Shown here: piece after piece, positions 1 to 62,529 of the stretch
How positions within the stretch are numbered: the stretch's first letter is position 1
Layout: every line of letters starts with the position of its first letter
Source of the DNA: Nemertoderma westbladi
Lineage: Eukaryota; Animalia; Xenacoelomorpha
NCBI GenBank assembly: GCA_032718475.1
Contig: JAUCBJ010007204.1
Location: 85,154 to 149,153, forward strand
DNA: 64,000 nucleotides
Direction: 5' to 3'
Program-made: the position numbers and the translations under genes
Notes under the pieces: model-generated
The model's input: the letters and a program-made list of their open reading frames with translations, nothing else
Told to the model about the DNA's origin: nothing
The model's database searches: none

Positions 1-39
1 CTATCTAACGGAGAGAAACTTAGGTTCCTCATCAAGTGC

Positions 40-3000: not shown

Positions 3001-5661
3001 ACTGAAAGAGACATCCTGTTTTTTCAGTTAAAACAGCGAGATAATCCAGTTCGGACCAAACGGATTTGTTTAAGCATCCTGAGCAATTATTTCGACCCAT
3101 TGGGATTTATTAGCCCAGTTATATTGATTGCTCGGAGTTTAGTACAACAGATGTGGCTTGAAAACCACTCATGGGACGATCCGCTTAAGGGAGAATTGTT
3201 AAAGAGATGGATGAAGTGGGAAGATTCTCTACCTGCCATCGAGAACTTTATAATTTCCCGTGCATATTTTGGCCATGTTCTTCCTACGTATTCCTATCAA
3301 CTCCATGTGTTTGGAGACGCCAGCGACATGGGAATAGGTATAGTAGCATATCTGCGAGTCGAAACTCCGGATGGAATCAAAGTCGCCTTGGTTACCTCTA
3401 AGGCATTGATTAACAACAAGCTAAAGGTTCCTCGAGCGGAGTTAAAGGCGGCTTTATACGCTACAGCCATCAGCCGGAACGTAACGGAACAAATCGACTA
3501 TCCACTGGAGAAAACGGTTTATTGGACCGACGCTTTACTCGTGTTGGAGTATCTCACCAATGAAGTCTGTCAGTTTAGCGTTTTTGTTACTAACCGAGTA
3601 GCTATTATTCTTAGTCGCACAAAGATAGATCAATGGAGACATTGCCCTGGTACGATTAATCCAGCCGATATCGCCTCCAGGGGAGCAACTCCACAGGAAC
3701 TGATAGATACTCCAGATTGGTTGGGTGGACCCGACTTCCTGAGCAAGGAAGAGGATGAATGGCCTCCTCACCTTACTACGGCAGAGATTAGACAAGCCAA
3801 GGGAGCGGAGACAGTCAAACCTAAAACCCGGGCGAGTAAATCGAAGTTATTTAAACCGACTATCGATCTATCTGTATTACATACTTCCGGGAATGATGCT
3901 TCGGATCCACAATCCCTCAACACAAATAAGTCTGTTGTGGAAATTAGAGATAAAGATTGGAAATCTGGAATACCAGACGTCTCGCAAGGAATCTCACCCA
4001 TGCTGCAGAGAGCAATGCATCATTACAGTTCCTGGAATCGGCTCTGTAAAGCCGTCACATATTTAAGACGATGTTTTCATCATCACTACTCCAGGACGAA
4101 GACCACTAGTGATCACGCTCCATTGACATCTGCACAAGTTCATGTTATTAAGAATTTACCCAAATATAAGATATCTGATCGTTTTCTAAAAGAGAAAATT
4201 AGTCACCAGGAGCATGAAGAAACAAATAAGCAGATACTGAGACTCCTGCAATGCTATGAGGATTCCGAAAAGTACTTCCTGTTGTTGAGAAATCCGCAGA
4301 TGCGCTTAAGGGATCGATTCTCGAGCACAATGATAGATGGGTTAATACGTGTTGGAGGAAGACTCACCAACGCGCCCTTATCCTTTGACACCAAATTCCC
4401 CATACTTATTAGAAATCTTGAAGTACAAATCAAGATGATTGTAGACGTTCACGGTAAACTTTATCATGCTGGTAGAGAACGAATTCTTAGCGAAATTCGA
4501 ACTCGCTATTATTTTGATAAACCCCGTAGAGCTCTGAACCAAGTTCTTAGGAACTGCATACCCTGTAGGAAAGCATTCAGTAGGCCTTTAACACAGCGAG
4601 AGGCAGAATTACCTAGGGAACGAGTAAGCTTCTATGAACCACCTTTTACTAATACTGGTGTAGATTTATTTGGCCCTATTGAAGTATATCGTGCGAGGAC
4701 TATAGTCAAGAGATGGTGTGTCATCTTCGTGTGCATGACCTGTAGAGCCATCCATCTCGATATGGTGAACGATCTATCTACTAACAGCTTCGTCTTAAGT
4801 TTACGACGACAGATCGCTCGCTTCGGGACGAGTAATACCATGAGATCGGATAAAGGAACGAACTTCATAGGTGCCAACAACGAGATACAGGCTTACGTGA
4901 AGGACTGGAACCAAAGACAGGTGGACGACCAGCTAAGGATAACAGCGTCTAGCTGGACCTTCAACGCTGCCGACGCCCCTTGGTGGGGAGGAAGTTGGGA
5001 GAGATTAATTCGAAGTGTCAAAACCGCATTTCACTTTATAGTGCCATGCCGCGCGTATCTCACCGAAGAACTTTTGCGGACGTTAATGGAGGAAATCGCT
5101 GCCTATCTCAACGAGAGACCGCTTATGCCAGTCTCATCGAGTCCCGATTCCCTGGAAGCGCTAACACCCGCGCACTTCCTACTGAAGAAACCTGTAGCCA
5201 TGCTCCCACGATCGGAGATTGCCGACGGAGACGAATACTGCCGTCGAACTTGGCAACTTATGCAGTTGCTATCCCGTCGTTTCGCTGACCATTTCGAGAA
5301 ACATTATCTGCCCACGCTACAACTTCGAACTAAGTGGTTTGCGCAGCAAGAAAACGTCAGCGCCGGAGATATGGTGCTTATTGTAGATCCAGACCTCCCA
5401 CGTAAACGGTGGCAGACAGGTCGTATCATCGAGACACACATTTCAGATGATGGTTTAGTACGCTCGGTAGAACTCATCGTCATGCGGCGTAACTTCAAGA
5501 AGCCAGGCATCATCTTTGAGACGCAACAACTCAATCGCCCAGTTGGTCGTTTATGTTTACTGGAAAGAGACAGAGAACTCTCCGGGAACTATGGAAGGCA
5601 AGACACTCTTCCCACGACCACCTCCCTAATTCCTCAAACATCTAGGGACTCCCTAACGTGA
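40..5661 (+). CDS. BEL/Pao Gag-Pol polyprotein (frame open from the window edge, N-terminus outside)
   Basis: Triple zinc knuckle (CALCDGTHRLSAC, CYNCLRPGHQRRTC, CAKCGAKHHILLH), protease LLDSGS, RT (RVVFDGS, YMDD), RNase H HVFGDAS, NPADIASRG, integrase HHCC plus GVDLFGP/SDKGTNF/WERLIR. All are typical BEL/Pao motifs. Confidence 0.95.
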   Translation: MEGPPKLMALKFIGHPEGLRQVWDTLNIRYGNKDNIAKYLYAKLVAPRHFLSSGIIEFSDEIQEICRQLELLGKSHEYQSSMVIGAVVSTLPKGGVCTRWDKKVLYMNEQQRRSPTMADLMSFLDGEVKLQLIKQSREKTSENKVSEKPASRRRITPVCYTDDGESQVSQEEDSGKDTERSYYVDKTPKDVSKYKARNNDRREQVAKTPPQSPNRMHRRKPEEKTRVHQVTQGKVSKIKPNCALCDGTHRLSACAEFLKKSLVDRRAVVWDKRLCYNCLRPGHQRRTCYSDIKCAKCGAKHHILLHSEFERDKQSQVSEPELHVQFSDVNDTDQESEMEGFYTDEFSDANESCYLINTAVYRALTYEKDTNNEFPPTTFAKQPSWKAPTSNVGIREFPVVQVRVHGLNKSYIVNALLDSGSTGTFIDQELAEDIFAGQPKFRTKLNMSGIMQVWKSTLTADYYVGVLSTPQDKLGAQGIRSVKMVAIKNFATTQADLYNWDEDESIQHLKIPRFQTDYPGVQILIGQNTHEALETLEKRPAQPQPLQTYAVRTRVGWYFTGPSRRTLEERMPQEQTYQVHDWEVESSEVDELTEGTPYSSDNDDIYQLFDEENTIDLLTENQTWKSQVNLCQLIHPSEPIAYNDELNDEIERYNARTRDELAVRFFTQELVEPNSYDKALSIEEERAKQIQETTTRFLKDQGRYEIGLPFRKREPRFINNRPLAEKRIAQLYRRLTANASAKEMYQTQLKKFITKGYAERVPEGTPVTERTYYLTHHYVPKPGKPHEVRVVFDGSALYMGQSLNSELLPGPNLLQSLLGILLRLRQYSIAFASDIEGMFLQVKALDRDRDSLRFLWWPEGDLNQKPVEYWMTIQAFGIISSPSNACSVVRTTANDNRDSFSKEVIDNIKRNIYMDDNLRSLPSVEEAIAVAKGTVECLKRGGFRLTKFTSNSREFLEAIPVEDRGTKDLDLIKDDLPETKTLGLKWDTERDILFFQLKQRDNPVRTKRICLSILSNYFDPLGFISPVILIARSLVQQMWLENHSWDDPLKGELLKRWMKWEDSLPAIENFIISRAYFGHVLPTYSYQLHVFGDASDMGIGIVAYLRVETPDGIKVALVTSKALINNKLKVPRAELKAALYATAISRNVTEQIDYPLEKTVYWTDALLVLEYLTNEVCQFSVFVTNRVAIILSRTKIDQWRHCPGTINPADIASRGATPQELIDTPDWLGGPDFLSKEEDEWPPHLTTAEIRQAKGAETVKPKTRASKSKLFKPTIDLSVLHTSGNDASDPQSLNTNKSVVEIRDKDWKSGIPDVSQGISPMLQRAMHHYSSWNRLCKAVTYLRRCFHHHYSRTKTTSDHAPLTSAQVHVIKNLPKYKISDRFLKEKISHQEHEETNKQILRLLQCYEDSEKYFLLLRNPQMRLRDRFSSTMIDGLIRVGGRLTNAPLSFDTKFPILIRNLEVQIKMIVDVHGKLYHAGRERILSEIRTRYYFDKPRRALNQVLRNCIPCRKAFSRPLTQREAELPRERVSFYEPPFTNTGVDLFGPIEVYRARTIVKRWCVIFVCMTCRAIHLDMVNDLSTNSFVLSLRRQIARFGTSNTMRSDKGTNFIGANNEIQAYVKDWNQRQVDDQLRITASSWTFNAADAPWWGGSWERLIRSVKTAFHFIVPCRAYLTEELLRTLMEEIAAYLNERPLMPVSSSPDSLEALTPAHFLLKKPVAMLPRSEIADGDEYCRRTWQLMQLLSRRFADHFEKHYLPTLQLRTKWFAQQENVSAGDMVLIVDPDLPRKRWQTGRIIETHISDDGLVRSVELIVMRRNFKKPGIIFETQQLNRPVGRLCLLERDRELSGNYGRQDTLPTTTSLIPQTSRDSLT

Positions 5662-7287: not shown

Positions 7288-10200
7288 ATGACGGAGTTGA
7301 TAGAAGATGATCTTGGTATTAGGGAGCGATATACTCTACCTTTACAAGCATTTGTGGATAGCTTAATACGCGGTGAAGCCGATCCAACCATTACGGAGGA
7401 CGATGGTCGTTATATCGAACCGCCGATGTCCCAAGAGCAACTTGCGCGTGAATTGGACTATCGAAAATTCACCACTCGCTATACGAATCGTAATGGTACG
7501 TATATGGACTTCCTAACGACCGGCCATCCTATCGATTTACATGATACGGACGATGTAGATACAGAAAGGGAAATGGTTCTATTTAAATATCATACCCAGC
7601 GGAATCGTAACGATAAACCGAGAATAGATCACGAAAATTCTATTCGTAATAGACTGGAAAGAGAAAACGTTGAAGAACCAGATAAACGCATCGACTTCAA
7701 CGAATACTTAGAATTTTTGAGAGAAACCTATCTCAACGTCGCTAGTCAGCAAGCAGAACTTAGAGACTCGATATCCTCAAGGTATCCATCACGACCCTGT
7801 GGTAGAACTCAAACGGCTCTATTTCACTATGATGTATCTTACCGCCGATCGTCCACTACCTGTTATCCCGGATAGTTTTGAACAAATGGAAGAATATTGC
7901 AAAACTGGAGAACGTTCACCTGCGTTTCCTCTACAGGACATACGTCTTTGGTATTATTGTGACGAATGCCCTAGACCCAACCAACAAACTGAAAGACACA
8001 AACATCCGCGGAGACATTGCGCTAAACATAGTTTTACGCGTTACACTTACGGGAGTTTCGAGCGAAACCTGTTCGACGTACCGCCCACGATCGCTCGTCT
8101 TAAACGATCACTGAATAAACCCATGATCAGAGTTCCGGAATACTCGGTCAGGCCTCCTCATTCCCTAGTGAGACCTCAAACTCTTGATCCTAACAGTATC
8201 ACTGATCCTCCCGAACTATATTCCCTGTTCAAAGACTTAGTGTTACCCGAACAACTAATCGGTGGTGCTCCGGTAGTGGGTTCGTTAGACATCCGCCCAT
8301 CCTACTTAGCCGGATTGGGACGCGGGCAACTAATATCGCCCTTTGATCCTTACAATCGTCCAGGATTAAACCCGATACAACCCGCCACGGAAGTCGAGGA
8401 GAGCGTTATAAGAAACGCTTTAGACGCCATTCGACAGAAAATCGGAAAGGGAACACAAGATTGTTTAGAGAAACGTAAATTACAACAACAAGTCCAATCG
8501 GTGAAGGAGTTAGCCTTGCCACAGTTCGATAGAGAAATCCAAAACCTCGAGGAAGACATCGAGCTTGGACGCACGTATTCTCTACAAGAATTTTTAGATG
8601 AACGCTTACAGAGACAAGCGGAAGAAAATCTAATCGAAGAGAAACACACGAAACTGGAAGAAAGAGAAGAAGCCGCTTTAGCCCAACCTGAAGCTCAAAT
8701 CCTCATGACGGACCTCTACTCTAAAACCGTTCGTCATCCCTCTATGATTCCACATTTCGGAGACAAGCTCTTCGCGACGATACAACCTCAACCGGTTGAT
8801 ATCAGTACAGGATCGCAAAACCTTATCGCTGACGCCCCTATGTTACAGCGTCCGCCGATCGAGGCCGCTCGTGTTGACGGTATACTAGTTGAACCTCCGG
8901 ACAATCGAGCGGATCTTGTCCGTCGTATGGTACACGATGTCAACATACGCGCTAGACCTTTACAGAACTCGTTTTACGGGATTAAAGACCACCCTTATTA
9001 CGTTAATCTGACTCAATATTATATGGTAAAACCAGAAGACCCGACACATGATTTAAAGTTTCTACCACTAATAAATCCTCTAGACATTGTCGAACTCGAA
9101 CAATTGCAGAAACATCTGGATCAGTTAGTAAAGGTAAACTCATTTAGAAAACCATATAACATTTCTCGAATCGAGAAAGATATAGAACCTCCTTATAACC
9201 TCGATGGATTTATTAAAACTCGATTAGTCCATTGGAATCTAGATGTATTATTTGAAGAAGAGAAAATACAAAGATATGGAACTGTGGAGACGTATACCAC
9301 TCGGCATATGAAGTATAGTGATCTATCTCCCTGACGCTAACCAATGCGCCACCTTGTGGCATCCAGTAGGGATGACCCTAGAGAACGCCACCAAGGAGTG
9401 GAATGAAACTCTTAATGTTATTGAGATGTATGGAGTTGTCACCTACGATAATGAAGGTAGCGTTCCGGTCGGAGAGCTAGGAACTACGCGCATGATCCAC
9501 ATCCGCGGATTAGCTGGTTCTACCCACGTGTTTACTCGAGCGTGTTCCGACTTGATTGATTATTCTTTTGAAACTCTCACCGAAACACAAAAGAATCTCC
9601 GACATGGACAATTCGAACTCGCGCAGCGTTACGTCATTGACACCGAACGCAAACCGGCCATGGGCATCGATGGATCGATGTTACCCCAGCCCGTACTCGA
9701 GATGTTGTTCAACGAAAGAATCCTTAAAATCGGCTCAGCTGTTTATGGAGATCTCCAAAACGACTTTCGGAATATGGAGGACATTCCATACCCTTTCGTT
9801 GATACTCAGCTGATTGCTCCCTGGGCAGAAGGTCGAGGTTTCTTCCGCACCATGTATGCTAATACCTCTAGCAACATTACCAAGGTGCAACGAACTTCCA
9901 TCGGACATCTTGCCTTTCAGGAATATGGATGGAATTTCAAAGTCGGAAATCCCATTAACTATCAACAGGTATACGGAGACCATTATTCTCGATTATACTT
10001 TGATGGACCATTGACCGCACCTGGCGCCGTGTATAGCTTCATGAGTGTTCCACTCCGTCCCTCCTTAGCTATATACACGATCTTTGAAAACACCGCACTT
10101 GCCGGTTGGCTAGCCGATGTGTGCAGTCGTACTATACGCGCCCATCCATTAATACTTGGGACCAAACTCGCTAAGCTAGATGAACATAATAAATTCATCC

Positions 10201-11549
10201 GTTTCGAATGTTTCCGGAGATTTTTAACCCCGTTCCGCAACGTGGATAGCCAATTTAAAGACCGCGCCTTGACCAAACTCAGCCTAAGAAACTCAGCTGC
10301 AGAGAAGTTGGATAGCGCTGGATTCGCCATTTTCAAAGAGATTTGTATATTGAACTTGCACTCCTCTGTTATACAAAGACCTCGAATCCCCACCGGTTAT
10401 TCTGTCATGGAAATTCAGACAATAGGTCCACCTGAAGAGACAGACGCGCCCACTTCAGCTATGCACTTGGAAGACGAACCAATATGTCTAGAATCCGAAG
10501 AGATTCAGCCTATCGCGCCCCGGAACAGTGATAACGATTACATCATAGAATGGTATCAAGGTCCACAGTGTCTCACTGCGTACGATTATCGACATGCCAA
10601 CTATGTTTCTAGGCAACGTTGTCGGTTATGCGCATCGAGAGACCACGATACGCCCATGGACACCAACGTCCGCTGTTCCTATTTCCAAGAACAACCGTCT
10701 ATGGAAATTTATTGCGCATATTGCAGACTCAATAACCTGCATATCTTTGCGGTTTGCCCTCAATTTATGACTCAATGTCACCATTGTCAACTAAAGGGAC
10801 ATGCTAGTTTCGACTGCCCTTTTAATCACGATTTGGAAAGCGTAGATGAAATGATCACACTGCGTTACATCAGAGCTTGAGAAGCGAACGCTGATTTACA
10901 TTGTGATTCGCGCCATCGCTATTATCCCGGACGCGCTTACGAAGGAGTTTATGCGTTCCATCCTTATCTATTCGCTTCTGTTGAACAGAAATCACGCATA
11001 TCAAGTTACGAGCTACTGAAGCGCGTCGGAGAATGTATTTCAACTAAATTCGTACGCAAATTTCTCAGGAGTGTTAATCCTAGCGACCTTCATTCCTATA
11101 ACTTAATCAATTATATCCGTCAGGATCCGGACTATGGAGACTTGTTTGTTAACTCACACCCCGAGTTGCAGGAAGTACATCGAAGGCCTTACGAATACCG
11201 AGCCCGCGAACGCGAGTTGGAAAGGACCATTAAACCCCGGAAGTTTCTAACTGCCTATGGTCCACCCACGGCCCTCGTTCAGACCACTCGTAAAGGACCC
11301 GTAAGAGCGGCTGTCTTGAAACGAGCTCTCAAAGCCGTTAGACCCCTCTCACCTGACGTTGATGTCAATCAACCCGGTACTTCGACTGGCGGATACACCG
11401 ACCATAATCCTACACCCTCTGATGCAATCATATTGCACCCTTCACCCAGGAGTTATAGCCCTCCTTGTAAAGTGGCTCGCCCCAAAGAGAAAAGGACTCT
11501 GGCTAGCTTTAAAAAACTGCGTAAACGCCGTCCGCGCAAGAAAGACTAA
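7288..11549 (+). pseudogene. Extra ORF2 of copy A (~1420 aa reconstructed): DEDDy-like 3'-5' exonuclease plus CCHC zinc fingers, disrupted
   Basis: ORFs 7799-9334, 9318-10880 and 11142-11549 are colinear with the continuous 27752-30853 frame of copy C, and 7288-7875 matches the N-terminal ORFs of C and D. Frameshifts near ~7800 and ~9325; TGA replaces TGG at 10878-10880. Confidence 0.85.
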
Positions 11550-11627: not shown

Positions 11628-12913
11628 TGTAAAAGCTTCTGTGGGATATAACTGGCCCTTTTGCTTCGCAATCCAGTTTCCCCCCAGGCGCTGGAATACT
11701 CTAAAAGGGTTCTCTAACTGTATATATATTCCCCTCGCCCGCAAGGTACCGTTACAGGTGTTTTAACGGACATAAAAGTCATTCTGCTATATACGTGTTT
11801 TAGCGGACATGGTAAGGCAAAAAACCTGCAATGCGACAAATACCTTTCACAGCTTAGCCGTGATGATTCATATTACGACATCTAACAGCTGGTTGCTGAC
11901 ATGGAAACAGCCATTGGACGCATGGTTCTTTGTTTGGCTTGAGCCAATCAGAGCGATTTTTCCTGTCGACGTGTAGCTTTTCGGTCGATCATAAGGAGAG
12001 TGTTCAGTCTTACTGTTTTTTCTTGATACTTTGTTATTGCTATCTAGGCCAGGAACAACGGCTCTAGAGTCAATTCGTTTCATACTTTTAGAAGAAACAT
12101 TAGTAGGCTTAAATTATAGAGCGTATGACTGTTATCAATGCACATCAATTCAATTCATATCATAAATTAACAATTCACTTATCTTATTATACTTTGTTTG
12201 ATACTTATCGGTTCAACATACATTATTATACTGCTATTCACTGTTGTGTTTTGGTTGAATATTATTTGGAGAACATATATAAAGAACCCAAATTTCCCAA
12301 TTTTCTTGATACACTACAGGTTAGAGAGACGGGTTATATATAGCGATTGCGACTTATATTATTGTGTATGTAGTGAATTTAATGCTATTTGATAAGCACT
12401 ACATTGGTCCGTTGCTGTTCGCTTTATATATGATAAAATTCATTGACGGTCGGCAAATTAGTGAGCAGTATTGTGTGTTACCGGTAGTGTGCATGATTGT
12501 GATTGATAACTAAGCATTTCCTAAAGAATGCGCCTCATACGTGAATCTTAAGCCTTACCGACTTACCGTTGTGATTAGTATAAGTCATATCTCTGTTTAT
12601 TTAGATAGAGCGCCACGTCCTAAAGGAACTGTTAATATTTCCCGAAAGTGAATAATATTAGTCAGAAATTAATTATTAACGATCAATCGAATAATACAGT
12701 ACAGTAAGCTTACACTGCAATAATAATCTAAGCCCTCAGAATCCAGTCTCCCGGGAATATCCAGCGGGTGAATGGACGCGCACTAGGCTGGCTTCTGCTA
12801 ATGTTGTGTTTATTGGTATTAAATATTTGTCATCTTCTAAAGTATATTTATAAACCAAAAGACATATAAATTTTGGCAGGTTAAACTGCTAAAGGTCTTC
12901 AAAAGCGCGTACA
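11628..12913 (+). repeat. 3' LTR of copy A (1286 bp)
   Basis: Begins TGTAAAAGC after TTCTGGGAGCGG and ends GCGCGTACA. Highly similar to 24376-25626 and 50969-52219. Confidence 0.93.
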
Positions 12914-21148: not shown

Positions 21149-21695
21149 TGTGACGGGATCCGAGAGGATCCCGGTTTATCCGGTGTCGCTTATGTACGCG
21201 TCCCCGCCGTGTGAATGAAAAGAGCTGTTGTTCCAGTGTCGTTATTATGGACTGATATATATATAATACAGAGTGATAGTAGATAGCACAGTTAACCGGT
21301 ATACTGAATGATATGTGATTGGTGACGGCGGTGATGGTCTAAATTGTCACCGTACTACCGTGACTGTAGTGACAGTCTGAGATAACTGAAGTGAATGGAT
21401 AGCACGACCGGTAATATATTGCACGGTGGCCTTATTGCTACTCAATCGATGCCTTTCCCCCCTCTGATTGGTTGGTATCCCTGTTGGCACCCTTTGGAGT
21501 GTTTCCCTTCGCTCCCTGTGTTCTCTCTCGGTTAGGGGTTTGGCCCCTGACCCCTATTGTGTGTGTCTCCTTTGGGGCCTATTGTCCCCGTTTACTGGGC
21601 TGACACGAGGTTGATTGGTAATCAACCTCGTGCTCCCAATATTGCTTTATGGCTCACTCTATGGGTTTGTGTTAGCGGAATTGGATAAGCTAACA
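21149..21695 (-). repeat. 5' LTR of element B
   Basis: Direct repeat of 14883-15429, flanked by TSD GATAC. Confidence 0.93.
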
Positions 21696-23801: not shown

Positions 23802-24375
23802 GTGTGGTGTACCGCAAGGTAGTATATTAGGTCCTCTGCTTTTTGTATGCTATGTAAATGATATGATAAGTAGTATAGATCCCGATTTTAAACTCATTTT
23901 ATATGCCGACGACAGTGCTCTTATTTTCTCTCATAAAGATCCTATCCATATTTCCCAAAAATTAAGTGCAGTTCTAGAATCCTGTAATGAGTGGTTGGTT
24001 GATAATAAGCTATCCATTCACTACGGTAAAACTGAAAGTATTTTGTTTGGTTCCAAAAGAAAGTTAAAGAAGGTAACTAAGTTTGAAGTCACTAGTAATG
24101 GACATAAGATTGAAAATAAAAAGGAAGTTAAATATTTAGGCGCCACATTGGATAACTGCTTATCAGGAGAAAGCATAGTGAAAAATATTTTCTCGAAAGT
24201 TAACAGTAGGCTTAGGTTTCTATACAGAAATAAAAATAGTTTGAACACCGACTCCCGCAAGTTACTTTGCTCTTCTTTAATACAGTGTCACATGGACTAT
24301 GCGTGCTCTTCTTGGTATGAAGGCTTAACCAAACAGCTTAAATGTAAATTACAAGTAGCTCAGAATAAAGTAGTA
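23802..24375 (+). pseudogene. 5'-truncated LINE (L2/CR1 group) RT, left part, interrupted by LTR element D
   Basis: CGVPQGSILGPLLF...ILYADD...KTESILFG...KYLG motifs. The frame breaks exactly at the TSD TAGTA. Confidence 0.9.
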
Positions 24376-25626
24376 TGTAAAAGCTTCTGTGGGATATAAC
24401 TGGCCCTTTTGCTTTGCAATCCAGTTTCCCCCCAGGCGCTGGAATACTCTAAAAAGCTCTCTAACTATATATATATCCCCCTCGCCCGCAAGGTACCGTT
24501 ATAGGTGTTTTAACGGACATAAAAGTCATTCTTCTATATACGTGCTTTGGAGGACATGGTAAGGCAAAAAACCCGCAATGCACCAAATACCCTTGCACAG
24601 CTTAGCCTTGATGATTCAGATTACGACATCTAACAGCTGGTTGCTGACATGGAAACGGCCATTGGACACATGGTTCTTTGTTTGCTTAACAGCCAATCAG
24701 AGCGATTTTTTCTGTCGATGTGGAGCTTTTGGCAGATCATGCTAGGAATGTCAGTCTTACTGTTTTTCTTGTTACTGTTGTGTTGTTTCTATCTAGGCCA
24801 GGAACACCGGCTCTAGAGTCAATTCGTTTTCATACTTTAGAAGAAACATTAGTAGGCTTAAATTATAGAGCGTATAACTGTTATCGGTGCAACTCCGTTC
24901 AGTCTTTCATTATCGGTTCAACATACATTGTTGTGCTGCTGTTTGCTGTTGTCATATTTTGTATCAGTTGGTTGAATATTATTTGGATAACATCTATAAA
25001 GAACCCAAATTTCCCAATTTTCTTGATACACTACAGTTTAGAGAGACGGGTTATATATAGCGATTGCGACTTATATTATTGTGGTTTGTAGTGAATTTAA
25101 TGCTATTTGATAAGCACTACATGAGTCCGTTGCTGTTCTCTTTATATATGATAAAATTCATTGACGGTCGGCAAATTAGTGAGCAGTATTGTGTGTTACC
25201 GGTAGTGTGCATGATTGTGGCTGATAACTAAGCATTTCCTAAAGAATGCGCCTCATACGTGAATCATAAGCCTTACCGACTTACCGTTGTGATTAGTATA
25301 AGTCATATCTCTGTTTACCTAGATAGAGCGCCACGTCCTAAAGGAACTGTTAATATTTCCCGAAAGTGAATAATATTAGTCAGAAATTATTTATTAACGA
25401 TCAATCGAATAATACAGTAAGCTTACACTGCAATAATAATCTAAGCCCTCAGAATCCAGTCTCCCGGGTATATCCAGCGGGTGAATGGACGCGCACTAGG
25501 CTGGCTTCTGCTAATGTTGTGTTTATTGGTATTAAATATTTGTCAACTTCTAAAGTCTATTTGTAAACCAAAAGACATATAAATTTTGGCAGGTTAAACT
25601 GCTAAAGGTCTTCAAAAGCGCGTACA
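24376..25626 (+). repeat. 5' LTR of copy D
   Basis: TGTAAAAGC...GCGCGTACA; direct repeat of 50969-52219. Confidence 0.95.
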
Positions 25627-25637
25627 ATAACAGTTAT
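25627..25637 (+). promoter_or_regulatory. Non-tRNA primer-binding site candidate of copy D (ATAACAGTTAT)
   Basis: Directly follows the 5' LTR, has no TGG, and is the exact reverse complement of ATAACTGTTAT at 24874-24884 in the LTR. Confidence 0.7.
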
Positions 25638-26029
25638 TGTCTTTATTGCAGTAAGCAATAAAGTTGAAAGTACCGGTAAACCTGAACCGGTACTTCTGTA
25701 GGTCAGTAGGCCCAACTGCCAGAACCGGTACCGCTGTAGGTCCGTAGGTCCAACTGCCAGAACCGGTACTTCTGTAGGTCCGTAGGCCCAACTGTCCTAA
25801 CCGGTACTTCCAGTATAAGTACATTAGTATTATTCGATTTTGATTATTGTATACTGGTAGGTCTTAGTATTTAATCAGGGACGGCCGCCCTGGTTTTTTA
25901 TTGAGATTTTACTTATTTCTGTCGGTTTTATTTACATGTAAGTTAATATTGAGCTGAAGACGTGTAAGTCTGCTCAGATTGTTCAGATAATTGTAGGCCG
26001 GACTGTTGTCGGATTGTTGTTGGGTTTGG

Positions 26030-26500
26030 AGAGATTACTGCGTGTGTAGAGTTTGTCCGATAGAGTGCCAGTTAGTAAGTTGGGGCAGCCATAGCTGTAA
26101 GGTCAATCCCCTCTTAAAGAATAAGTCGTACTACCGTGTTAGAACGCATACTAACTAACCATTTTGGAATCTGCACATACTGTAGTTTATTTAGGCTTGA
26201 CAGTATTCTGCCAGCGTTTTGGCCTGTGTTTGTTTGTGTAGTCTGTTCAGGTACCGTAATAGTTATTACTCAGATATTTTGTAGGCTGGATTGTTGTCTA
26301 GCTATTATTAGGTCTGAAGAGATTGCTGCGTGTGTAGAGTTTGTCTGATAAAGTGCCAGTTAGTAAGTTGGGGCAGCCATAGCTGTAAGGTCAATCCCCT
26401 CTTAAAGAATAAGTCGTACTACCGTGTTAGAACGCATACTAACTAACCGTTTCGGAATCTGCACATACTGTAGTTTATTTAGGCTTGGTGGTAGTCTGCC
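26030..26500 (+). repeat. ~288-bp-period direct repeat in the 5' leader of family 1
   Basis: GTTAGTAAGTTGGGGCAGCCATAGCTGTAAGG... at ~26071 and ~26359. The homologous pair in copy C is at ~40390-40500 and ~40680-40790. Confidence 0.85.
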
Positions 26501-26504
26501 AGCG

Positions 26505-27673
26505 TGTTTGCGCTTTTAAGACCTTTGACAGTTTAACCTGCCAAATTAGGATGTCTTTTAGATGATATATAGTCTTTAGCCTATGACGAGTATTTGATAC
26601 ATTACATTAGCCGAAGCCAGTCTATGCGCAATCATTCACCCGTTGGATATACCCGGGAGACTGAGTTCGGAGCTTAATGATTGATGGTGTAAGCCTACTG
26701 TATTATTCGACTGATCGTAATATATAATCTCTGACTAATATTATTCACTTTCGGGAAATATTAACAGTTCCTTTAGGACGTGGCGCTCTAAATATATAAA
26801 CAGAGTTATGGTTTAAACTAGACACAACGAAAAGGCTATAGATTTACGTATATGGCGCATTCTTTAGGAGATGCTTTGTTATCAGTTACGATCATACACA
26901 ATGCTGCACAATACTGCACACTAATCTGCCGACCTTCACTAAATTTGGTCACGTATAAAGAGAGCAACATACAATTTATGTTGGGCATATGAAATAGCAT
27001 TAGATTCACTTCAAACCACTTAACATAGGTCGCAATCGTTTATCTGTAACCGGTCTCTCTAACCTTTAGTATATCAAGAAGGTGGGGTGTCTGACTATTG
27101 ATCAGTATTCCGATATAATATTTCATCAACCAATATAATGAATAACCGACAGTAAAAGCAGTAATATCAAGGTATAAATGATTATTAAGTGAATGAGTTA
27201 ACTCGGTAACTCGCTTGTGCAAATCGTTTGATAACAGATATACGTTCTATAATTAAGCCTACTAATGTAAGACTAAAGACTGAAAACACGGAGGTGCCAA
27301 AAGCCGGTGTTCTTAGGCTCTGGGCAAAAACATAACACTGAACTACTGAGTTCTGTATCCACCTCCAACACAGAGTCAAAAAACGCTCTGATTGGTCAAC
27401 CGAACAACGAGAGAACAAAGAAACAAAGAAATGTCGACGTGGCAATATCAGCTGTTAGCCGTCGTCATGGTAGCGACACTGTTTTCAAGAGTATCTAGCT
27501 TATCGCGTCACGAGATTGCGGATTATGTCCTCTAAAGTACAAATACAGAAGAAATGACTTTTATGTCCTCTAAAACACCAGTACAGCAAGGACACGGCCT
27601 TTTTATGCCTGGTAAACCAACTACAGAGTACTTTAAGGGAAAATAACCGGTTAATGACGCAAAAGCTTTTACA
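26505..27673 (-). repeat. 3' LTR of copy C (1169 bp)
   Basis: Direct repeat of 41182-42357, which carries an extra 7-bp duplication. Confidence 0.95.
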
Positions 27674-27751: not shown

Positions 27752-30700
27752 TTAGTCTTTCTTACGCGGACGGCGTTTACGCAGTTTTTTGAGGCTAGCA
27801 AGAGTCCTTTTCTCTTTGGGGCGAGCCACTTTACTAGGAGGGCTGTAACTCCTGGGTGAAGGGTGCAATACAATTGCATCAGAAGGTTTCGGATTGCGAT
27901 CGGTGTATCCGCCGGTCGAGGTACCTGGTTGATCGATATCAACTTCCGTGGAGCGAGGTCTAACAGCCTTTAGGGCGCGCCTCAGGACAGCAGCTCCTAC
28001 GGGTCCTTGACGGGTTGTCTGGGCAATGGCGGTAGGCGGACCGTGGGTGGTAAGAAACTTCCTTGGTTTAATAGTTCTTTCCAGCTCGCGTTCTCGGGCT
28101 CGATATTCGTAGGGCCGTCGAGATACTTCCTGCAACTCAGGGTGCGAGTTGATAAATAAGTCGCCATACTCAGGGTCTTGACGGATATAATTGATCAAAT
28201 GGTATGAAGTAATATCGTTAGGATTGACGTTCCTAAGGTATCTTCTAACAAATTTAGTGGAAATACACTCACCAACACGCTTCATTAGCTCGTAACTCGG
28301 TACGCGTGTTTTTTGTTCCACAGACGCTAATAAATAAGGATGGAACGCGTAAACTCCCTCGTAAGAGCGTCCAGGGTAGTATCGATGACGGGACTCACAA
28401 TGTAAATCCGCGTTCGCTTCCCAAGCTCGAATGTAGCGCAGGGTAATCATTTCATCTACGCTCTCTAAATCGTGATTAAAGGGGCAATTATAACTGGCAT
28501 GTCCTTTAAGTTGACAGTGGTGGCATTGAGTCATAAATTGGGGGCAGACTGCAAAAATATGAGAGTTATTAAGTCTGCAATACGCACAATATATCTCCAT
28601 CATTGGTTGTTCGTGGAAATAGGAACAGGGTACGTCTGAGTCCATAGGAGTGAAATGGTCTCTCGATGCGCATAATCGACAACGTTTTCGAGAAACATAG
28701 TTAGCGTGTCGATAATCGTATGCGGTGAGACATTGTGGACCTTGATACCACTCTAAGACGTAGTCGTTATCGCTGCTCCGGGGCGCTGTAGGCTGAATCG
28801 CTTCAGCTTCTAAGCATATTGGTTCGTCTTCCAATTGCATAGCTGAGGTAGGTGCGGCTGTCTCCGCAAGCGGACCCACTGTCTGAACTTCGACGACAGA
28901 ATAACCCGTGGGTATTCGGGGTCTTTGTATAACAGATGAGTGCAAGTTCTGTATACAAACGTCCTGAAAAAGGGCAAATCCCGCGCTGTTTAGCTTCTCC
29001 GCCGCTGAGTCTCTCAGGCTGAGTTTGGTCAGAGCGCGGTCCTTGAACTGACTATCAACGTTACGGAACGGAGTCAGAAAGCGCCTGAAACATTCAAAGC
29101 GGATGAATTTATTGTGTTCATCTAACTTGGCGAGTTTGGTTCCAAGTATTAAGGGATGGGCGCGTATGGTACGACTGCACACATCGGCTAGCCAACCGGC
29201 AAGTGCTGCGTTTTCAAAGATCGTGTATATAGCTAAGGAGGGACGAAGTGGAACACTCATAAAGCTATACACGGCGCCAGGTGCGGTCAATGGTCCATCA
29301 AAGTATAAACGAGAATAATGATCTCCGTATACTTGTTGGTAATTTATAGGATTTCCAACCTTGAAATTCCATCCGTATTCTTGAAAGGCAAGATGTCCGA
29401 TGGAGGTTCGTTGTACTTTAGTAATTCCGCTGGGTGTATTGGCATACGTAGTGCGGAAGAAACCTCGGCCTTCTGCCCAAGGAGCAATCAGCTGAGTATC
29501 AACGAAGGGGTATGGAATGTTCTCCATATTCCGAAAGTCGTTCTGTAGGTCTCCATAAACAGCTGAGCCGATTTTAAGGATTCCTTCGTTAAACAGCATC
29601 TCGAGCACGGGTTGGGGTAACATCGATCCATCGATACCCATGGCCGGCTTGCGCTCGGTGTCGGTGACGTAACGCTGCGCGAGTTCAAATTGTCCATGTC
29701 GGAGTTTCTTTTGTGTCTCAGTAAGAGTTTCAAAAGAATAATCAATAACGTCGGAACACGCTCGAGTAAATACGTGGGTAGAACCAGCGAGTCCTCGTAT
29801 GTGTATCATCCGCGTAGTTCCAAGTTCTCCAACCGGAACGCTACCTTCGTTATCGTAAGTGACAACTCCATACATCTCGATAACGTTAAGAGTTTCGTTC
29901 CACTCTTTAGTGGCGTTTTCGAGTGTCATTCCCACAGGATGCCACAAGGTAGCACATTCGCTAGCATTAGGCAGGTCTTTATACTTTAAATATTGTGTGG
30001 TATATGTTTCCACATCTCCATATCGTTGTATTCTTTCCTCCTCGAATAACACATCAAGATTCCAGTGCACTAAACGAGTTTTGATGAATCCATCAAGATT
30101 ATACGGAGGTATTGTTTCTTTCTCTATTCTGGAAACATTATATGGTTTTCGAAACGAGTTTACTTTAACTAACTGATCCAGATGTTTCTGCAGTTGTTCG
30201 AGTTCGACAAGATCGAGAGGATTTATTAACGGTAGAAACTTCAGACTATGTGTAGGATCTTCCGGTTTTACCATGTAATATTGTTTTAGATTGACGTAAT
30301 AAGGGTGATCTTTGATCCCATAAAACGAGTCCGGTAAAGGTCTAGCGCGTATGTTTACATCGTGTACCATGCGACGGACAAGATCTGCTCTATTGTCCGG
30401 AGGTTCAACGAGTATACCATCGACACGAGCGGGTTCGATGGGCGGACGCTGCAACAGAGGAGCGTCGGCGATAAGATCGCGAGATCTTAGGTTGATATCA
30501 ACCGGTTGGGGTTGTGCCGTCGCAAAAAGTTTGTCTCCGAAATGGGGAACCATCGAGGGATGAAGAATGGTTTTAGAGTAGAGATCCGTCATAAGGATTT
30601 GCGCTTCGGGTTGAGCTAAAGCCGCTTCTTCTCTCTCATCCAGTTCTATATGTCTCTCCTCGAGCTGATTCTCCTCCGCTTGTTGTTGTAGACGCTCATC

Positions 30701-31166
30701 TAGAAACTCTTGTAAAGAGTAGGTTCGTCCACGTTCGATGTCCTCCTCGAGATTTTGTATTTCTCTATCGAACTGGGGTAAAGCTAATTCCTTCACCGCT
30801 TGGACTTGTTGCTGCAATTTACGCTTCTCCAAACAATCGTACGTTCCCTTTCCGTTGGGTATGATATTTAAATAAAACCATTTCCCTTTCAGTATCCACA
30901 TCGTCCGTGTCGTGTAAATCGATAGGATGGCTGGTAGTTAAGAAGTCCATATACGTACCATTACGATGCGTATAGCGAGCGGTGAACTTTCTATAGTCCA
31001 ATTCACGCGTAAGTTGCTCCGGGGACATCGGCGGTTCGATATAACGACCATCATCCTCCGTAGTAGTTGGACCAGCGTCGCCGCGTATCAAGCTATCGAC
31101 AAACGCTTGTAAAGGTAGAGTATATCGCTCCCTGATGCCAAGATCATCTTCTATCAACTCAGTCAT
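27752..31166 (-). pseudogene. Extra ORF2 of copy C: DEDDy-like exonuclease plus CCHC fingers; C-terminal ~1030 aa uninterrupted, N-terminal deletion/frameshift
   Basis: ATG at 31166 (MTELIEDD). An ~845-bp deletion relative to copy A at ~30853 has CGGAA microhomology. Then an open frame with VVTYDNEG, LKIGSAVYGD, FVDTQ, PLRPSLAIYTIFE, CRLC/CAYC/CHHC fingers and a KKLRKRRPRKKD tail. Confidence 0.88.
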
Positions 31167-39082: not shown

Positions 39083-41170
39083 GTTTGTTTACACAGTTGA
39101 ATGTCCACTGCTATATTACAGTCTAAGCAAGTCTAGTAGTTCAGCACCAACTGCTAGCCTAATAATTAATCACCGATACTGCCACTCAGTGTAGCGTGAT
39201 ATATATATAATATTAGAATACCGGTATGCTTATGGTATATATAAGTATAATTATTAACTAGAATTAATTACAGAATACCGGTATGATTTCAGCTTAAGTT
39301 TATGAACATAAAGATAATAAGCCTATTGTAAATACCGGTATATCAATTATTTTAAATAACTGAATTTCTGAATTTTAAGGGTTACTTGGTTACTTTAACT
39401 TACTTTATTACCGTTATTTAAGCAGTGGTCCAACTGATATTGAGACCTAGTTGTTGTATGGCAGGCCTACTATTTATAAATCGTTTGAGTTGATTTATAA
39501 TATATATATACCCGTTTAATGGGTTTTGTCAATGTTTGAAATAAATGTTATTATTTCTGGGGGAGTCACTACACATAAGCTGTGCGCTCTCAGTGGAGTG
39601 CTACTTGTTAGACATTAAAACAAATAATTCTAATTTACCTAAGTTACTTAATACTACAAATTACGTACAATTCGGGTTGAGATTACAATCTCTAAATAAA
39701 CACAAAAATTTAATTACAAATACACAAATACAAATTTTTAGGGTAATTTTACAAGAAGTCTACTAACCAGCCTAACAAAGGGTTAGAATATCTGGTTATT
39801 ACAACGGACAGGTTACTACGGTATTTGAAAATAATAAGTAGTAGTAAATATACTGCGTTGTCCAGATAGGAAAATACCACCGTCTGACGACCTATAACCG
39901 TATCGCTATAGGTACTACGTTATGTATCACGGAGTGTCCCTACCTAGAAGTTAATTACCGCGGTCTACCAGAACCAACGTGCCTATTAACCACTTTACAA
40001 CACATATACACTGCCTACACACTAATTGCTTTCGGAAAGCACTGTACACTAAACCCTAAATTAGGTACAAGTACTTGTACAACAAATAATTAGTAGTTAA
40101 AAATACTTGAACAGCTAAAAGAACCACGGTATCTGCCGGAGTGACCAAAGCACAAAATCTCCAGTCTTTACCTACGCCGAGCAGCCCTGATGTAGTACCG
40201 GGGTTAGTTTAACTATAACGGTATGTATAACAAACACAATTACTGTAGGAATAAACTTGGGGATATGAATGTTGCGAATAATAGCATAAACTCTGAATAA
40301 TAAATATTACGCTACGCGTACAAACTACTCAAACAAAATGCAGACCAAATACTGACAGACTACTATCAAGCCTAAACAAACTACGGTATATGCAGACTCC
40401 GAAATGGTTAAGTAGTATGCGTTCTAACCCAGTAGTATGACTTATTCTTTAGATGGGGGTTTACCTTACAGCTATGGCTGCCCCTACTTCCTAACCGTTC
40501 TTTATCGGACAGATGCTTTACACACACCGAAATTTCCTCAAACCCAACAGCAGCCAGACAACTATCCAGCCTACAAATTATCTAAATAAAATTATACGCT
40601 ACCCGTACAGACTACACAAACAAAGTACAGACTAAACGATGGCAGACTACTATCAAGCCTAAATAAACCACAGGACATGCAGACTCCGAAATGGTTAAGT
40701 AGTATGCGTTCTAACCCAGTAGTACGACTTATTCTTTAGATGGGGGTTTACCTTACAGCTATGGCTGCCCCTACTTCCTAACCGTTCTTTATCGGACATA
40801 CACTCTACATGCACTGCAATCCGTTCAGACCTAATCAACAGTTAGCCAACAGTCAAGCCTACAAATTATCTGTACAATCTGAGCAGGCTTACACGCCTTC
40901 TGCTCAATACTGGCCTACAAATAAATAAAACTGACAGAAATAGGCCTAAGTAAAATCCCAATAAAAACCAGGCGTCCCCGATTAATTATTAAGACCTACC
41001 GGCATATAATAATCAAATCGAATAATACTGCTGTACCTGTACTGTTGTAGGTACCGGTCCGGATGATCAGGCAGTCAGGCCTACTGGTTACCGGTCGACC
41101 GGTACTTTCGACTAGATTGCTTACACTGCAATCCAGAAGCAATATCTGTTATTGTTTCTGGATTAGATCA

Positions 41171-41181: not shown

Positions 41182-42357
41182 TGTTTGCGCTTTTAAGACC
41201 TTTGACAGTTTAACCTGCCAAATTAGGATGTCTTTTAGATGATATATAGTCTTTAGCCTATGACGAGTATTTGATACATTACATTAGCCGAAGCCAGTCT
41301 ATGCGCAATCATTCACCCGTTGGATATACCCGGGAGACTGAGTTCGGAGCTTAATGATTGATGGTGTAAGCCTACTGTATTATTCGACTGATCGTAATAT
41401 ATAATCTCTGACTAATATTATTCACTTTCGGGAAATATTAACAGTTCCTTTAGGACGTGGCGCTCTAAATATATAAACAGAGTTATGGCTTAAACTAGAC
41501 ACAACGAAAAGGCTATAGATTTACGTATATGGCGCATTCTTTAGGAGATGCTTTGTTATCAGTTACGATCATACACAATGCTGCACAATACTGCACACTA
41601 ATCTGCCGACCTTCACTAAATTTGGTCACGTATAAAGAGAGCAACATACAATTTATGTTGGGCATATGAAATAGCATTAGATTCACTTCAAACCACTTAA
41701 CATAGGTCATAGGTCGCAATCGTTTATCTGTAACCGGTCTCTCTAACCTTTAGTATATCAAGAAGGTGGGATGTCTGACTATTGATCAGTATTCCGATAT
41801 AATATTTCATCAACCAATATAATGAATAACCGACAGTAAAAGCAGTAATATTAAGGTATAAATGATTATTAAGTGAATGAGTTAACTCGGTAACTCGCTT
41901 GTGCAAATCGTTTGATAACAGATATACGTTCTATAATTAAGCCTACTAATGTAAGACTAAAGACTGAAAACACGGAGGTGCCAAAAGCCGGTGTTCTTAG
42001 GCTCTGGGCAAAAACATAACACTGAACTACTGAGTTCTGTATCCACCTCCAACACAGAGTCAAAAAACGCTCTGATTGGTCAACCGAACAACGAGAGAAC
42101 AAAGAAACAAAGAAATGTCGACGTGGCAATATCAGCTGTTAGCCGTCGTCATGGTAGCGACACTGTTTTCAAGAGTATCTAGCTTATCGCGTCACGAGAT
42201 TGCGGATTATGTCCTCTAAAGTACAAATACAGAAGAAATGACTTTTATGTCCTCTAAAACACCAGCACAGCAAGGACACGGCCCTTCCATGCCTGGTAAA
42301 CCAACTACAGAGTACTTTAAGGGAAAATAACCGGTTAATGACGCAAAAGCTTTTACA
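41182..42357 (-). repeat. 5' LTR of copy C (1176 bp)
   Basis: TG...CA termini, flanked by TSD CAGCG. Confidence 0.95.
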
Positions 42358-43731: not shown

Positions 43732-46700
43732 ATGTCTGACACAACCCAATCACTGTCGGATAGTCTCTTAGAAAGTGTTAGAATGACTGTTAGACAGTGT
43801 CTTAAAAAGATCAGTGACCCAGATCCAAGTATAGAACATCCTAGATCCAAGTCTAAGTCACCTACTATTGTCAAAAAGGCCATCCCTACAGTAGTAGTGT
43901 CAGACCCTAGGCTAGTAGAACAACGTAGGTCTATCATCGGTACTCGGGCCCAAGTCAAGCGGGATCAAGAAGCAGCTGTCAAACAGCAGCAACATCCTAG
44001 CCTAGAACCTAGTTCTCAGCGGCCCGATAGCTCCAGTAGTTCGGATACTGCTGAGCGGACGCCCGAACGCGGAGCGAAGATGGCAGATACGGTTTATGAT
44101 GAGCGGCCAACCTATGAAAAATCAACCGACGCCACTTCTTCTCAAGTGGAAAGCGAGGTGGAAAGCGAAGTGGAAAGCGAATTAACAGCAGCAGAGAAGC
44201 CGCGAACTAGAGACGCGATTGACATCTATCTGTCAGACTATCAGCGATTCCTAGGAGACGAAGAGTTGAGGAGATGACTGTCTGGACTTCGCCCTAATAG
44301 TGAAGGAACCAAGCTTGTGTTGGACGCAATCGATGCGGAAATGTTAGCTGCAAACCAAGCTAAATTTGATGAAAAACTCCGCCTCGTTAGAGTCCAAGAA
44401 GAACAAGTAAAGAAAAAACGGATAGAGGACCGAAAGGCAGCGGCAATGGCAATGGCAGAAGTGGAAAGAAAGGCGGCAGCGGCAATGGCAATGGCGGCAA
44501 AGGCAGTGGCAGAAGCAGAACGGAGAGCGTCTGAGGAGACTACCCAACTGGAGTTGGAAAATCTGCAAGAGACGCAAGACTGCATAAATAAACAGTTAAC
44601 TGCTAGTCACATGCAGATGATGAGAAGATCTACTCCCAAACGCCAGGGATACACATCATCGGAGGAAAGCGAAACCACCGATCCTGAAGGCGGAGGAAAT
44701 AGATCTCGTCTAAGCAGGCGTAGAAAAACATCTCACCGTCACAAATTGCCTGATTTGCCCCCAGCGGTTAGAAGACAACTAGCTAGCACAGACTTAGGTA
44801 GTACAGAACACACAGAACAAATTATTCAGGTCAAAGGACTCCCTACAATAGTTGATGAGCCTGAAATAATTGGGCCTGTCGTTCCCAAAGCCACTCCTGT
44901 GCTAGAGACCCCTGTACTTCCAGAGCTTAACTCTAAATTCCCTTTACACAGTACTACACTGCCTGTACCCGGTAGAACAGTCCATGAGAATATCCCTGTC
45001 CTGGAAGCTGAGAGAGAAATCAAAGATTTGTCTCCCGTCGTCCCACGTCAGCCCGCTACAATGTTGGCGACTCCCGCTTCGGCGGTCGAGTGGGTAGAGG
45101 AGGGACGGCGGGGGATGAATCTCCTGCTCGGACAGATGCAGGAGACTGTCTACCAACTTAAGGGAACTGTAAGGGAAGGTAGGGCAGAATTGCAAGAAGT
45201 GCAGCAAAGTATAGCGCTGGAACGCGACAAATTAGTCAATATACAAAAGAGTATACCAATACCCCCTGTAACATTGTGTCAACCTGTTAGGTCTGAAGTA
45301 TTACATGCGCAAGGTGTGGAGCCTACACGCATCTATACTGCTAATGAAGTAGAAACTCCTATAGCAAACCCTATTAAGGGTGATTATAAACCTGTTGTTA
45401 ATGATATTCCCTATAGACCTGATAATAATCCGGGAAATTTATATACCGATAATTCGATATTAAATAACACTATGGCCCAAGAAAGCTTTACGCGTCAGAT
45501 GGCTAGAACAGAAGCCCGCCAAGCGGTTAAAGTGGGAGAGATCGTCAAATTCAACGGAGATGAGATGAAATGGTTACCTTTCAATGAATATTACAAAGAT
45601 AGTATACAGAACTCTGTACTATCTAACGGAGAGAAGCTTAGATTCCTCATCAAGTGTTTGGAAGGACCTCCCAAGTTAATGGCGTTAAAGTTTATTGGAC
45701 ATCCAGAAGGATTAAGACAAGTTTGGGATACATTAAACATCAGGTACGGTAACAAGGATAACATAGCTAAGTATTTGTATGCAAAATTAGTAGCCCCCCG
45801 AAACTTCCTTAGTAGCGGGATTATAGAGTTTTCCGATGAGATTCAGGAGATCTGTAGACAATTGGACTGGTTAGGTAAGTCTCATGAATATCAGAGTTCC
45901 ATGGTTATTGGAGCCGTAGTCTCTACTTTACCAAAGGGTGGAGTATGTACACGCTGGGACAAGAAAGTGTTGTATATGAATGAACAGCAACGACGAAGCC
46001 CTACCATGGCTGATCTCATGTCCTTCTTAGATGGTGAAGTAAAACTACAACTCATAAAGCAGTCCAGAGAGAAAACATCGGAAAATAAGGTAAGTGAGAA
46101 ACCCGTTTCTAGGAGAAGGATAATACCAGTGTGTTATACTGACGACGGCGAAAGCCAAGCTTCTCAAGAAGAGGACAGCGGGAAAGACACAGGAAAATCT
46201 TACTATGACAACAAGACCTATAAAGACGTAAGTAAATACAAGTCTCGAACCAGTGACAGGAGAGAACAGGTAACAACAACTCCTCCTACGTCTCCTAAGA
46301 GAATTCACGGAAGAAAGCCCGAAGAAAGAACGAGAGTGCATAACGTTACCCAAGGTAAGGTGAGTACCATCAAACCAAAATGTGCGCTGTGCGACGGGCC
46401 CCACCGTTTGAGTGCGTGTGCTGAATTTCTAAAGAAATCCCTTGTAGACAGACGTACAGTCCTGTGGAATAAGCGGTTATGCTATAATTGCCTCAGATCA
46501 GGACACCAACGGCGAACCTGTTACTCCGACGTAAAGTGTGCAAAGTGTGGCGCGAAACATCACATCTTGTTACACAGTGAGTTCGAACGAGACAACCCGA
46601 GTCAGGTAAGTGAGCCCGAACTACATGTCCAATTCAGTGATGTAAATGACACTGATCAAGAATCTGAGATGGAAGGATTCTATACGGACGAATTCTCCGA

Positions 46701-57358: not shown

Positions 57359-57739
57359 GGAATAATGTGCTTGTTCATAATCAATTTCAGTCGTTGAAAC
57401 CTGCTGAGCAGAAGTGGAAATTGGGTTTGATAACGCACTAGTTGTTGCCGTTATCCCTACACCAGGGGGAAAAACGCTGATGCTGGAGACGTGACTTAAC
57501 AGACCACCGAGCCCCGGCCAGTCACCGGATATTGATTGTGGGGAGGGAATATTTTCTGAGATGCAAGTTTGCGGTTGATAAAAAGCTGCATTAGTTGGAT
57601 ATACTCTTTAATGTAACTTCCTATAGTTGAAACCTGATTAAGAATAATTTTGGGCTTCCCCAAATCAATATACACCAAATATTCACAATAATTATACACG
57701 ATAATATAAATCCCTACGGTATATTATTTAATAACCCAC

Positions 57740-61986: not shown

Positions 61987-62529
61987 ATTTACGATTATAT
62001 CCGTTACAAATTAGTTCAGTTAATTATAAGTCCAGAAAGTCTGAAACTATAGCGATAGCAGAATAATTCAGTTTTTTATTTAATTCAGTTTATTAAATAA
62101 CATTGCTATATAGGCATCTATCATCTTATTGCTAATACATTCAGCATTTACAGTTACTATAGCTATACATAATATCCAACCAGTTTTTTATGACTTTTTT
62201 GTCCTTTTTTTTCCAATTCTTTTCTTTGACCTCTTTTATACCTTTTTTTGTCTTTTTTCATTTCATTATTATTTCATCTCATTTCATTTATTTCCACATA
62301 TATTTCAACATTTAGTTCCACCATTTATTTCACATTTATTTATTTCCACATCATCATTGGGTTTATAGCCCCCCGGCTATCATCATTGGTTATAAGCGCA
62401 GCACCAGGGTGCGCATCATTTCATTTTCATCATTATACGCGTCATCATTCAGGTTTATAGCAGAGTTGTCTGATCCTTTTCATCGTTTCCAACTATATTC
62501 AATCATTTTCTTTGGTTAATCTTTGTCGT

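Follow-up and report, generated by a model that had tools for sequence, protein, structure and literature searches.

How does a BEL/Pao element start its minus strand when the position directly after its 5' LTR carries no tRNA-type primer-binding site? The window (the whole 64,000-nt stretch of DNA analysed here) raises this question through one family of LTR elements, family 1, present as copies A, C and D. A previous sequence-only reading had proposed that the family primes itself through a short LTR motif complementary to the post-LTR position. The evidence presented below makes self-priming, with all its variants taken together, quite probable. Among these variants we lean towards one in which family 1 would prime with the LTR-motif piece of its own unspliced RNA.

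Elements of the window and their class

The window is animal DNA dense in LTR elements, among which self-comparison and flanks delimit family 1 (Table 1). In the polyprotein of A, three Cys/His boxes, DSG and YMDD follow one another in that order, and its best homologues are BEL/Pao proteins (39-45% identity) that carry PF05380 and whose named hosts are cnidarians, echinoderms, molluscs, fish and other aquatic animals. Family 1 has the BEL/Pao domain order Gag-PR-RT-RH-IN and combines TG...CA LTRs with a target-site duplication and a purine tract; Ty3/gypsy chromovirus Pol was not found in it, the domains being those of BEL/Pao, with no chromodomain match. Its LTRs (1.17-1.29 kb) lie at or just over the 0.2-1.2 kb range of the Belpaoviridae, for which the ICTV profile also lists an 18-nt site pairing with the 3' end of tRNA-Arg or tRNA-Gly from the host (PMC8742986). 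This last trait is missing: as the earlier reading had noted, no TGG follows the LTR in D or C, which holds at both post-LTR positions. Because the tRNA site is a described trait and not a basis of classification, the elements stay in BEL/Pao by their proteins.

In copy D, RT, RNase H and integrase are for the most part missing, as is much of the extra ORF (45619-49815); it is a non-autonomous deletion copy with near-identical LTRs. Copy C is nested inside D, yet its LTR pair is less identical (98.7% versus 99.6%), for which hybrid LTRs, conversion or chance may account. Family 1 reaches a very high copy number in the host, with 12,715 contigs of one sequencing run aligning on 1.56 kb. Two further BEL-type families are held by the window, B (21695-14883) and E (3' part only), and the integrase of E is only 32% identical to that of family 1. 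The E 3' LTR is mostly filled by tandem GC-rich repeats (57808-58919), its end being inferred near 57612, and is followed on the same strand by a Ty3/gypsy pol (53648-57607, minus strand).

Table 1. Coordinates of elements and sequence features within the window.
Feature	Positions	Strand	Remarks
Copy A, family 1: 3' LTR	11628-12913	+	Motif at 12125-12135; element start outside window
A gag-pol	1-5661	+	BEL/Pao: DUF1759, Peptidase_A17, Integrase_H2C2, DUF5641
Extra ORF of A	7721-10880	+	Two pieces
Copy D, family 1	24376-52219	+	LTRs 1251 bp; target-site duplication TAGTA; large internal deletions
D 5' LTR	24376-25626	+	1251 bp; TG...CA; 5 differences from 3' LTR
CCAAT, candidate promoter element	24693-24697	+	Kept in A, C, D
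Initiator-like TCAGTC	24751-24756	+	123 nt before D motif; weaker candidate ~43 nt before
28-nt block shared with E	24845-24872	+	Just upstream of motif; donor-like GTAGGC at 24852
D LTR motif, predicted self-primer segment	24874-24884	+	ATAACTGTTAT
Splice-acceptor-like site	25013-25040	+	AG at 25035-25036, first by a rough score among the 38 AGs of D3 and A
~60 nt invariant between C and D	25324-25384	+	Within the D 5' LTR
U5-IR-like hairpin	25584-25607	+	19 nt before LTR end; overlaps acceptor-like CAG/GTTA
D primer-binding position	25627-25637	+	ATAACAGTTAT; no TGG; complement of motif
D 3' LTR	50969-52219	+	Purine tract just before; motif also at 51467-51477
Copy C, family 1	42357-26505	-	Target-site duplication CGCTG; nested in D's leader
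C 5' LTR	41182-42357	-	Self-comparison, flanks
C LTR motif	41925-41915	-	ATATCTGTTAT; A to T at motif position 4
C primer-binding position	41181-41171	-	ATAACAGATAT; T to A at site position 8
Second copy of C's site	41142-41152	-	In 18-nt duplication including last 5 nt of LTR
Extra ORF of C, after pol	27752-30937	-	3'-5' exonuclease-like region; Cys/His knuckles
C 3' LTR	26505-27673	-	Motif copy at 27241-27231
Element B	21695-14883	-	BEL-like gag knuckle; no pol found
B 5' LTR	21149-21695	-	547 bp; target-site duplication GTATC
B 9-nt LTR motif	21337-21345	-	Complement of 9 nt post-LTR (21148-21140)
Shared block in E 3' LTR	57744-57771	-	Then GTTAT at 57735-57731
Extra ORF of E	59386-62010	-	28% identity with family 1 across 111 aa

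Pairing between the LTR motif and the post-LTR position

In D, ATAACAGTTAT starts directly after the 5' LTR and is the exact reverse complement of ATAACTGTTAT; in C, ATAACAGATAT directly after the LTR is the complement of ATATCTGTTAT. Both pairings span 11 nt at offset 0 and use one homologous LTR motif, and crossing D with C drops the pairing to 7 nt. The sequence-only reading had thus placed both D segments correctly, and its further statements that the pairing is exactly 11 nt in both copies and that the two C sites changed together (the A to T at motif position 4 being matched by the T to A at site position 8) stand. Its remark that the motif of A still pairs also proved right: ATGACTGTTAT (12125-12135) reaches -10.2 kcal/mol with the site of D, compared with -10.1 for D:D, the site of A itself lying beyond the window. 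If self-priming is true, A-type copies are expected to carry ATAACAGT(T/C)AT at that site.

That this match is due to chance or to local duplication of a near-palindrome, without function, is very improbable. Among 20,000 dinucleotide shuffles, a complement at offset 0 arose 20 times for D and 28 times for C (64 and 66 times at any offset of 0-3), a chance of ~0.001 each that argues for self-priming, and such a complementary partner exists for 52 of the 62,739 positions of the window. The two sites of D are AT-rich near-palindromes and also a 10/11 direct repeat, as a duplication would leave them, so that only C can separate complement from duplication. The C sites show 3/11 differences as a direct repeat and none as a complement, and this matched change excludes simple duplication. 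It breaks one pair of a local hairpin while keeping the long-range motif:site pair and, given one change per site, would be matched by chance about 1 time in 33. D and C are one lineage and hence supply one matched change, not several, a point that counts against self-priming. The 40 matches listed from four sequencing runs, with 196 more beyond them, contained no variant of motif or site and carry no weight either way. A second copy of C's site lies within a long hairpin of the C leader (41181-41130, minus strand; fold z -3.2), and the D leader (25625-25730) is a row of hairpins, one of them over the site (z -4.5 for 25580-25700).

Against chance and duplication it also speaks that the pattern recurs in other letters, in element B and in distant relatives, and the recurrence in B, a separate BEL-like family, would favour self-priming as well. 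The LTRs of B are young (2 differences in 547), and no TGG follows them; the 9-nt complement stands at offset 0, as in 41 of 20,000 shuffles (109 for offsets 0-4), and its helix forms in the predicted fold. Initiator-like motifs of B lie at -126 and -44 from the pairing segment. A CCAATCAGAG motif is common to B and family 1.

Relatives were collected by a profile search that covered 17 of 64 parts and gave 80 metagenome loci of 515 confirmed. The LTR end was fixed by two copies in 12 loci; since L019 and L021 belong to a single family, 11 relatives remain. Seven of these show 10-15 nt of pairing to their own LTR, with letters different in each, and two carry a TGG site and reach only 4 nt of self-pairing, a division that would be expected under self-priming. 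The pairing is a contiguous 11-nt complement in one of the seven (L052), and in six (L009, L013, L017, L021, L022 and L059) a 10-15-nt complement arises only across a GTAAG...YAG LTR intron; the intron test permitted any GT or GC donor and any AG acceptor. Junction pairing was also found in L005, L007, L018 and L071. In the cross-pairing control, 3 of 154 combinations reached 11 nt and 7 of 154 reached 10 nt. Duplex energies are -10.1 and -10.5 kcal/mol in family 1 and range from -9.5 to -17.1 kcal/mol in the relatives. The LTR introns of the relatives measure 67-164 nt, and the pairing takes 4-9 nt from exon one and 4-7 nt from exon two.

Other comparisons count against self-priming. Two of the 11 relatives pair over 8 and 9 nt only, and among 17 further loci 13 have no junction match, the other four (one of them of the L017 family) being junction cases (cross control 5/272). 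In addition, both trees (FastTree, 68 and 63 rows; short-match loci excluded, in the RT tree including L017, L018, L071 and L077) place family 1 on a long branch, grouped with both TGG elements and L009.

A primer supplied by the host, i.e. a tRNA fragment or another small RNA, with the motif:site pairing acting as a regulatory switch or as a dimerisation or packaging contact, is unlikely. Seven site bases are common to C and D, and the site of D is almost self-complementary (-5.0 kcal/mol as a dimer), as such a reading would have it; the site of C, in contrast, does not self-pair (+0.8). Taken together, the upstream block and the motif also look like a tRNA D-arm with an Asn anticodon loop behind it, a likeness that we count for a host primer; E does not follow the anticodon-loop pattern. 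Neither Rfam nor ARAGORN returned a tRNA-like match, and Rfam gave nothing credible for 24300-26600 and 24800-24960. Host tRNA priming is what is stated for Belpaoviridae (ICTV, PMC8742986); against it, TGG is absent, the pairing in D, C and B coincides exactly with the priming position, and its letters vary by family, tracking the LTR of each.

Start, splicing and 3' end of the putative primer

Under the preferred reading, in which unspliced family 1 RNA primes itself, the motif must be placed within the transcript. The earlier reading implied a Tf1-like geometry, the motif being the first 11 nt of the RNA; this is unsupported, since promoter-like motifs lie upstream. CCAAT stands 154-181 nt upstream of the motif in A, C and D, and initiator-like motifs stand at -121/-123 in A and D and at -42 in C. 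Both were assigned by promoter consensus sequences and are candidate promoter elements. In the relatives, TATA is found at -31 in L009 and at -133 in L017 and L022, and in most of them there is none. It is therefore more likely, judging by these motifs, that the pairing segment lies ~40-120 nt inside the RNA, internal rather than at its 5' end, and it is 742 nt from the LTR end.

Secondary-structure prediction leans faintly the other way. The AU-rich motif:site helix is the minimum-energy fold only for an RNA that begins with the motif and stops shortly beyond the site, a weak hint at a motif at the RNA 5' end. When folded from the upstream initiator, the helix has a probability of 0-0.1 and lies 1.9 to 17 kcal/mol above the minimum, and in folds running past the site its probability is 0-0.07. 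That the duplex is not predicted in either setting speaks against self-priming, with the reservation that folding across 750 nt is weak evidence in either direction. The hairpin ahead of the LTR end, which is kept in C with different wobble pairs, would in turn favour it. Upstream of this hairpin, the first 18 nt of the invariant stretch at 25324-25384 weakly resemble a stretch close to the LTR start of E at a score of 24, reached in 94 of 300 shuffles and hence not significant.

The 28-nt block just upstream of the motif is the best whole-LTR local alignment of D or A with E (0 of 300 shuffles); default blastn missed it and full local alignment recovered it. In C it is not significant (389 of 5000 shuffles in a directed test). 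No blastn match to the block was obtained in any of the 80 relatives, its pattern had 0 matches in viral and metagenome contigs, and no relative was found in viral contigs. Shuffled sequences fold as well as the block region (z -0.25 to 0.27). With its donor-like GTAGGC and the acceptor-like sites downstream, which lie at 25036 and 25592 and each precede a GTTA in A, C and the D 3' LTR, the motif may lie within an intron and so be spliced out of the translated RNA. After the AG at 25035-25036, the D 5' LTR departs from this GTTA by a T at 25037.

These signals, and the junction pairing of the relatives, raise an alternative in which the self-primer belongs to the spliced RNA: an intron would open within the motif after ATAACT and close at a GTTA-flanked acceptor, giving a 10-nt primer at offset 1. 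We regard it as quite unlikely for family 1. It draws on the six of 11 relatives that pair only across an intron and on the four of 17 additional loci with junction pairing; furthermore, the acceptor that a rough score puts first in D3 and A has GTTA behind it and an indel-rich stretch ahead of it, and the junction yields 10 nt in both D and C. However, the donor GTTATC fits poorly with the consensus, and a better candidate is located 28 nt upstream; left unspliced, the motif gains one further base of pairing; and the nearer acceptor of C is AAG, outside the top five. Splice junctions in D or C never exceeded the 11 nt of the contiguous complement, and no joint fitting the candidate introns occurred among the 11 listed from the contigs of four runs. 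A motif cut mid-way by a weak donor and rebuilt at the joint appears less likely, from the sequence features, than one lying whole inside an intron.

An extra ORF could offer another route to a primer end. The ORFs of family 1 and E have YDNEG and a YxxxE motif in common, and comparison with the DEDDy 3'-5' exonuclease (PF01612) gave Atlas leads of 0.92-0.93 with 163 shared features in both families. Pfam returned no match at E 5 (homologue P0121 at E 0.2) and the PDB none, and the structural models (pLDDT 31-33) were too poor for a fold search. One homologue search found none, and another found two weak ones among 1.84 billion representatives. The ORF is absent from element B and from all 80 relatives. 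In a third alternative, which we consider improbable, the motif would be the RNA 3' end (the R/U5 border), perhaps trimmed by this exonuclease-like protein, and would fold back to prime. The GU-rich sequence after the motif fits such an end, as does the joint presence of block and exonuclease-like ORF in families 1 and E. On the other side, the 200 nt before the motif contain no AATAAA or ATTAAA in A, C, D or E; several relatives self-pair although none of the 80, nor B, has the ORF; and exonuclease catalysis is putative, the models being as poor as given above.

We therefore return to unspliced family 1 RNA as the source of its own primer, for which the following course can be envisaged. Transcription would start upstream of the motif, probably by 40-120 nt. 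In the particle, the motif would pair with the site across a ~740-nt loop, presumably assisted by nucleocapsid protein because a weak local hairpin competes. RNase H, as it does in Tf1, would cut directly behind the motif and leave a free 3'-OH that primes the minus strand, and during plus-strand synthesis the primer would then be copied into the daughter element's site, a step inferred from the standard LTR cycle. Since the primer would be copied back into the site, a change in the LTR would be carried over, and a matched change such as that of C could arise without selection. Either the cut or the point where copying stops may be marked by the upstream block, whose donor-like site may serve to remove the motif from translated RNA by splicing. 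A more general scheme is doubtful: that across a wide range of BEL/Pao the primer is an internal leader piece whose supply is set by splicing, the relatives excising an LTR intron and family 1 keeping the primer in an intron, such that only unspliced RNA primes, with the 28-nt block and the element's 3'-5' exonuclease defining the primer end.

Relation to known systems

Self-priming remains the best reading of this locus, backed by B and by the distant relatives, and of the earlier proposal it is the Tf1 geometry that falls away. We found no description of BEL/Pao self-priming in the available text of the literature searched (which includes few subscription papers or Repbase notes), and the accessible parts of PMC3601003, PMC5443660, PMC5445492, PMC3118150, PMC554778, PMC11662393 and PMC3286476 do not link the two. 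As in the Belpaoviridae (PMC8742986), family 1 has the domain content and order, TG...CA LTRs and a purine tract before the 3' LTR; their host tRNA site is absent from D, C and B. The system thus probably represents a known type of mechanism in a superfamily where no description was found, with a primer geometry unlike that of Tf1.

If true, this would add a third LTR superfamily that self-primes, and in animals, and an internal or splice-built primer would imply a 3'-end formation different from that of Tf1. LTR finders that demand a tRNA site would overlook many BEL/Pao elements, and such elements would evade tRNA-fragment control. A possible precedent inside BEL/Pao is the Cer7 type of BEL elements in C. 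elegans, some of which have reportedly been proposed to carry their own tRNA-like primer sequence together with an extra exonuclease-like ORF. The Cer7-type sequence, however, is reportedly an internal one of tRNA origin and no short motif of the LTR.

Among the systems with a short complement, self-priming has been predicted for plant Tcn1 (gypsy) and TAR (copia), where the available text of PMC6317226 asks for a complement of at least 10 bp located 0-5 bp after the LTR. By that measure D and C qualify and B, with 9 nt, does not; Tcn1 and TAR belong to other superfamilies and hosts than family 1. The closest likeness is to Tf1, Tj1 and sushi, for which self-priming is described in the accessible parts of PMC4600332 and PMC7175516, the latter stating that Tf1 primes with the first 11 bases of its RNA and that RNase H cuts between bases 11 and 12. 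To judge from these parts, D and C resemble Tf1/Tf2/Tj1 and the Tf1/sushi chromoviruses in the 11-nt LTR complement directly after the 5' LTR. They also have the site complementary to an LTR segment of 9-11 nt or more that marks the Tf1/sushi group, no tRNA site, and near the U5 end a hairpin (25584-25607 in D) that may correspond to the U5-IR stem-loop beside the duplex. In contrast, the Tf1/sushi elements belong to the Ty3/gypsy superfamily whereas family 1 has BEL/Pao domains; the motif of family 1 is probably internal to the RNA, 742 nt from the LTR end; BEL/Pao relatives appear to build the pairing across an intron; and family 1 has the extra exonuclease-like ORF.
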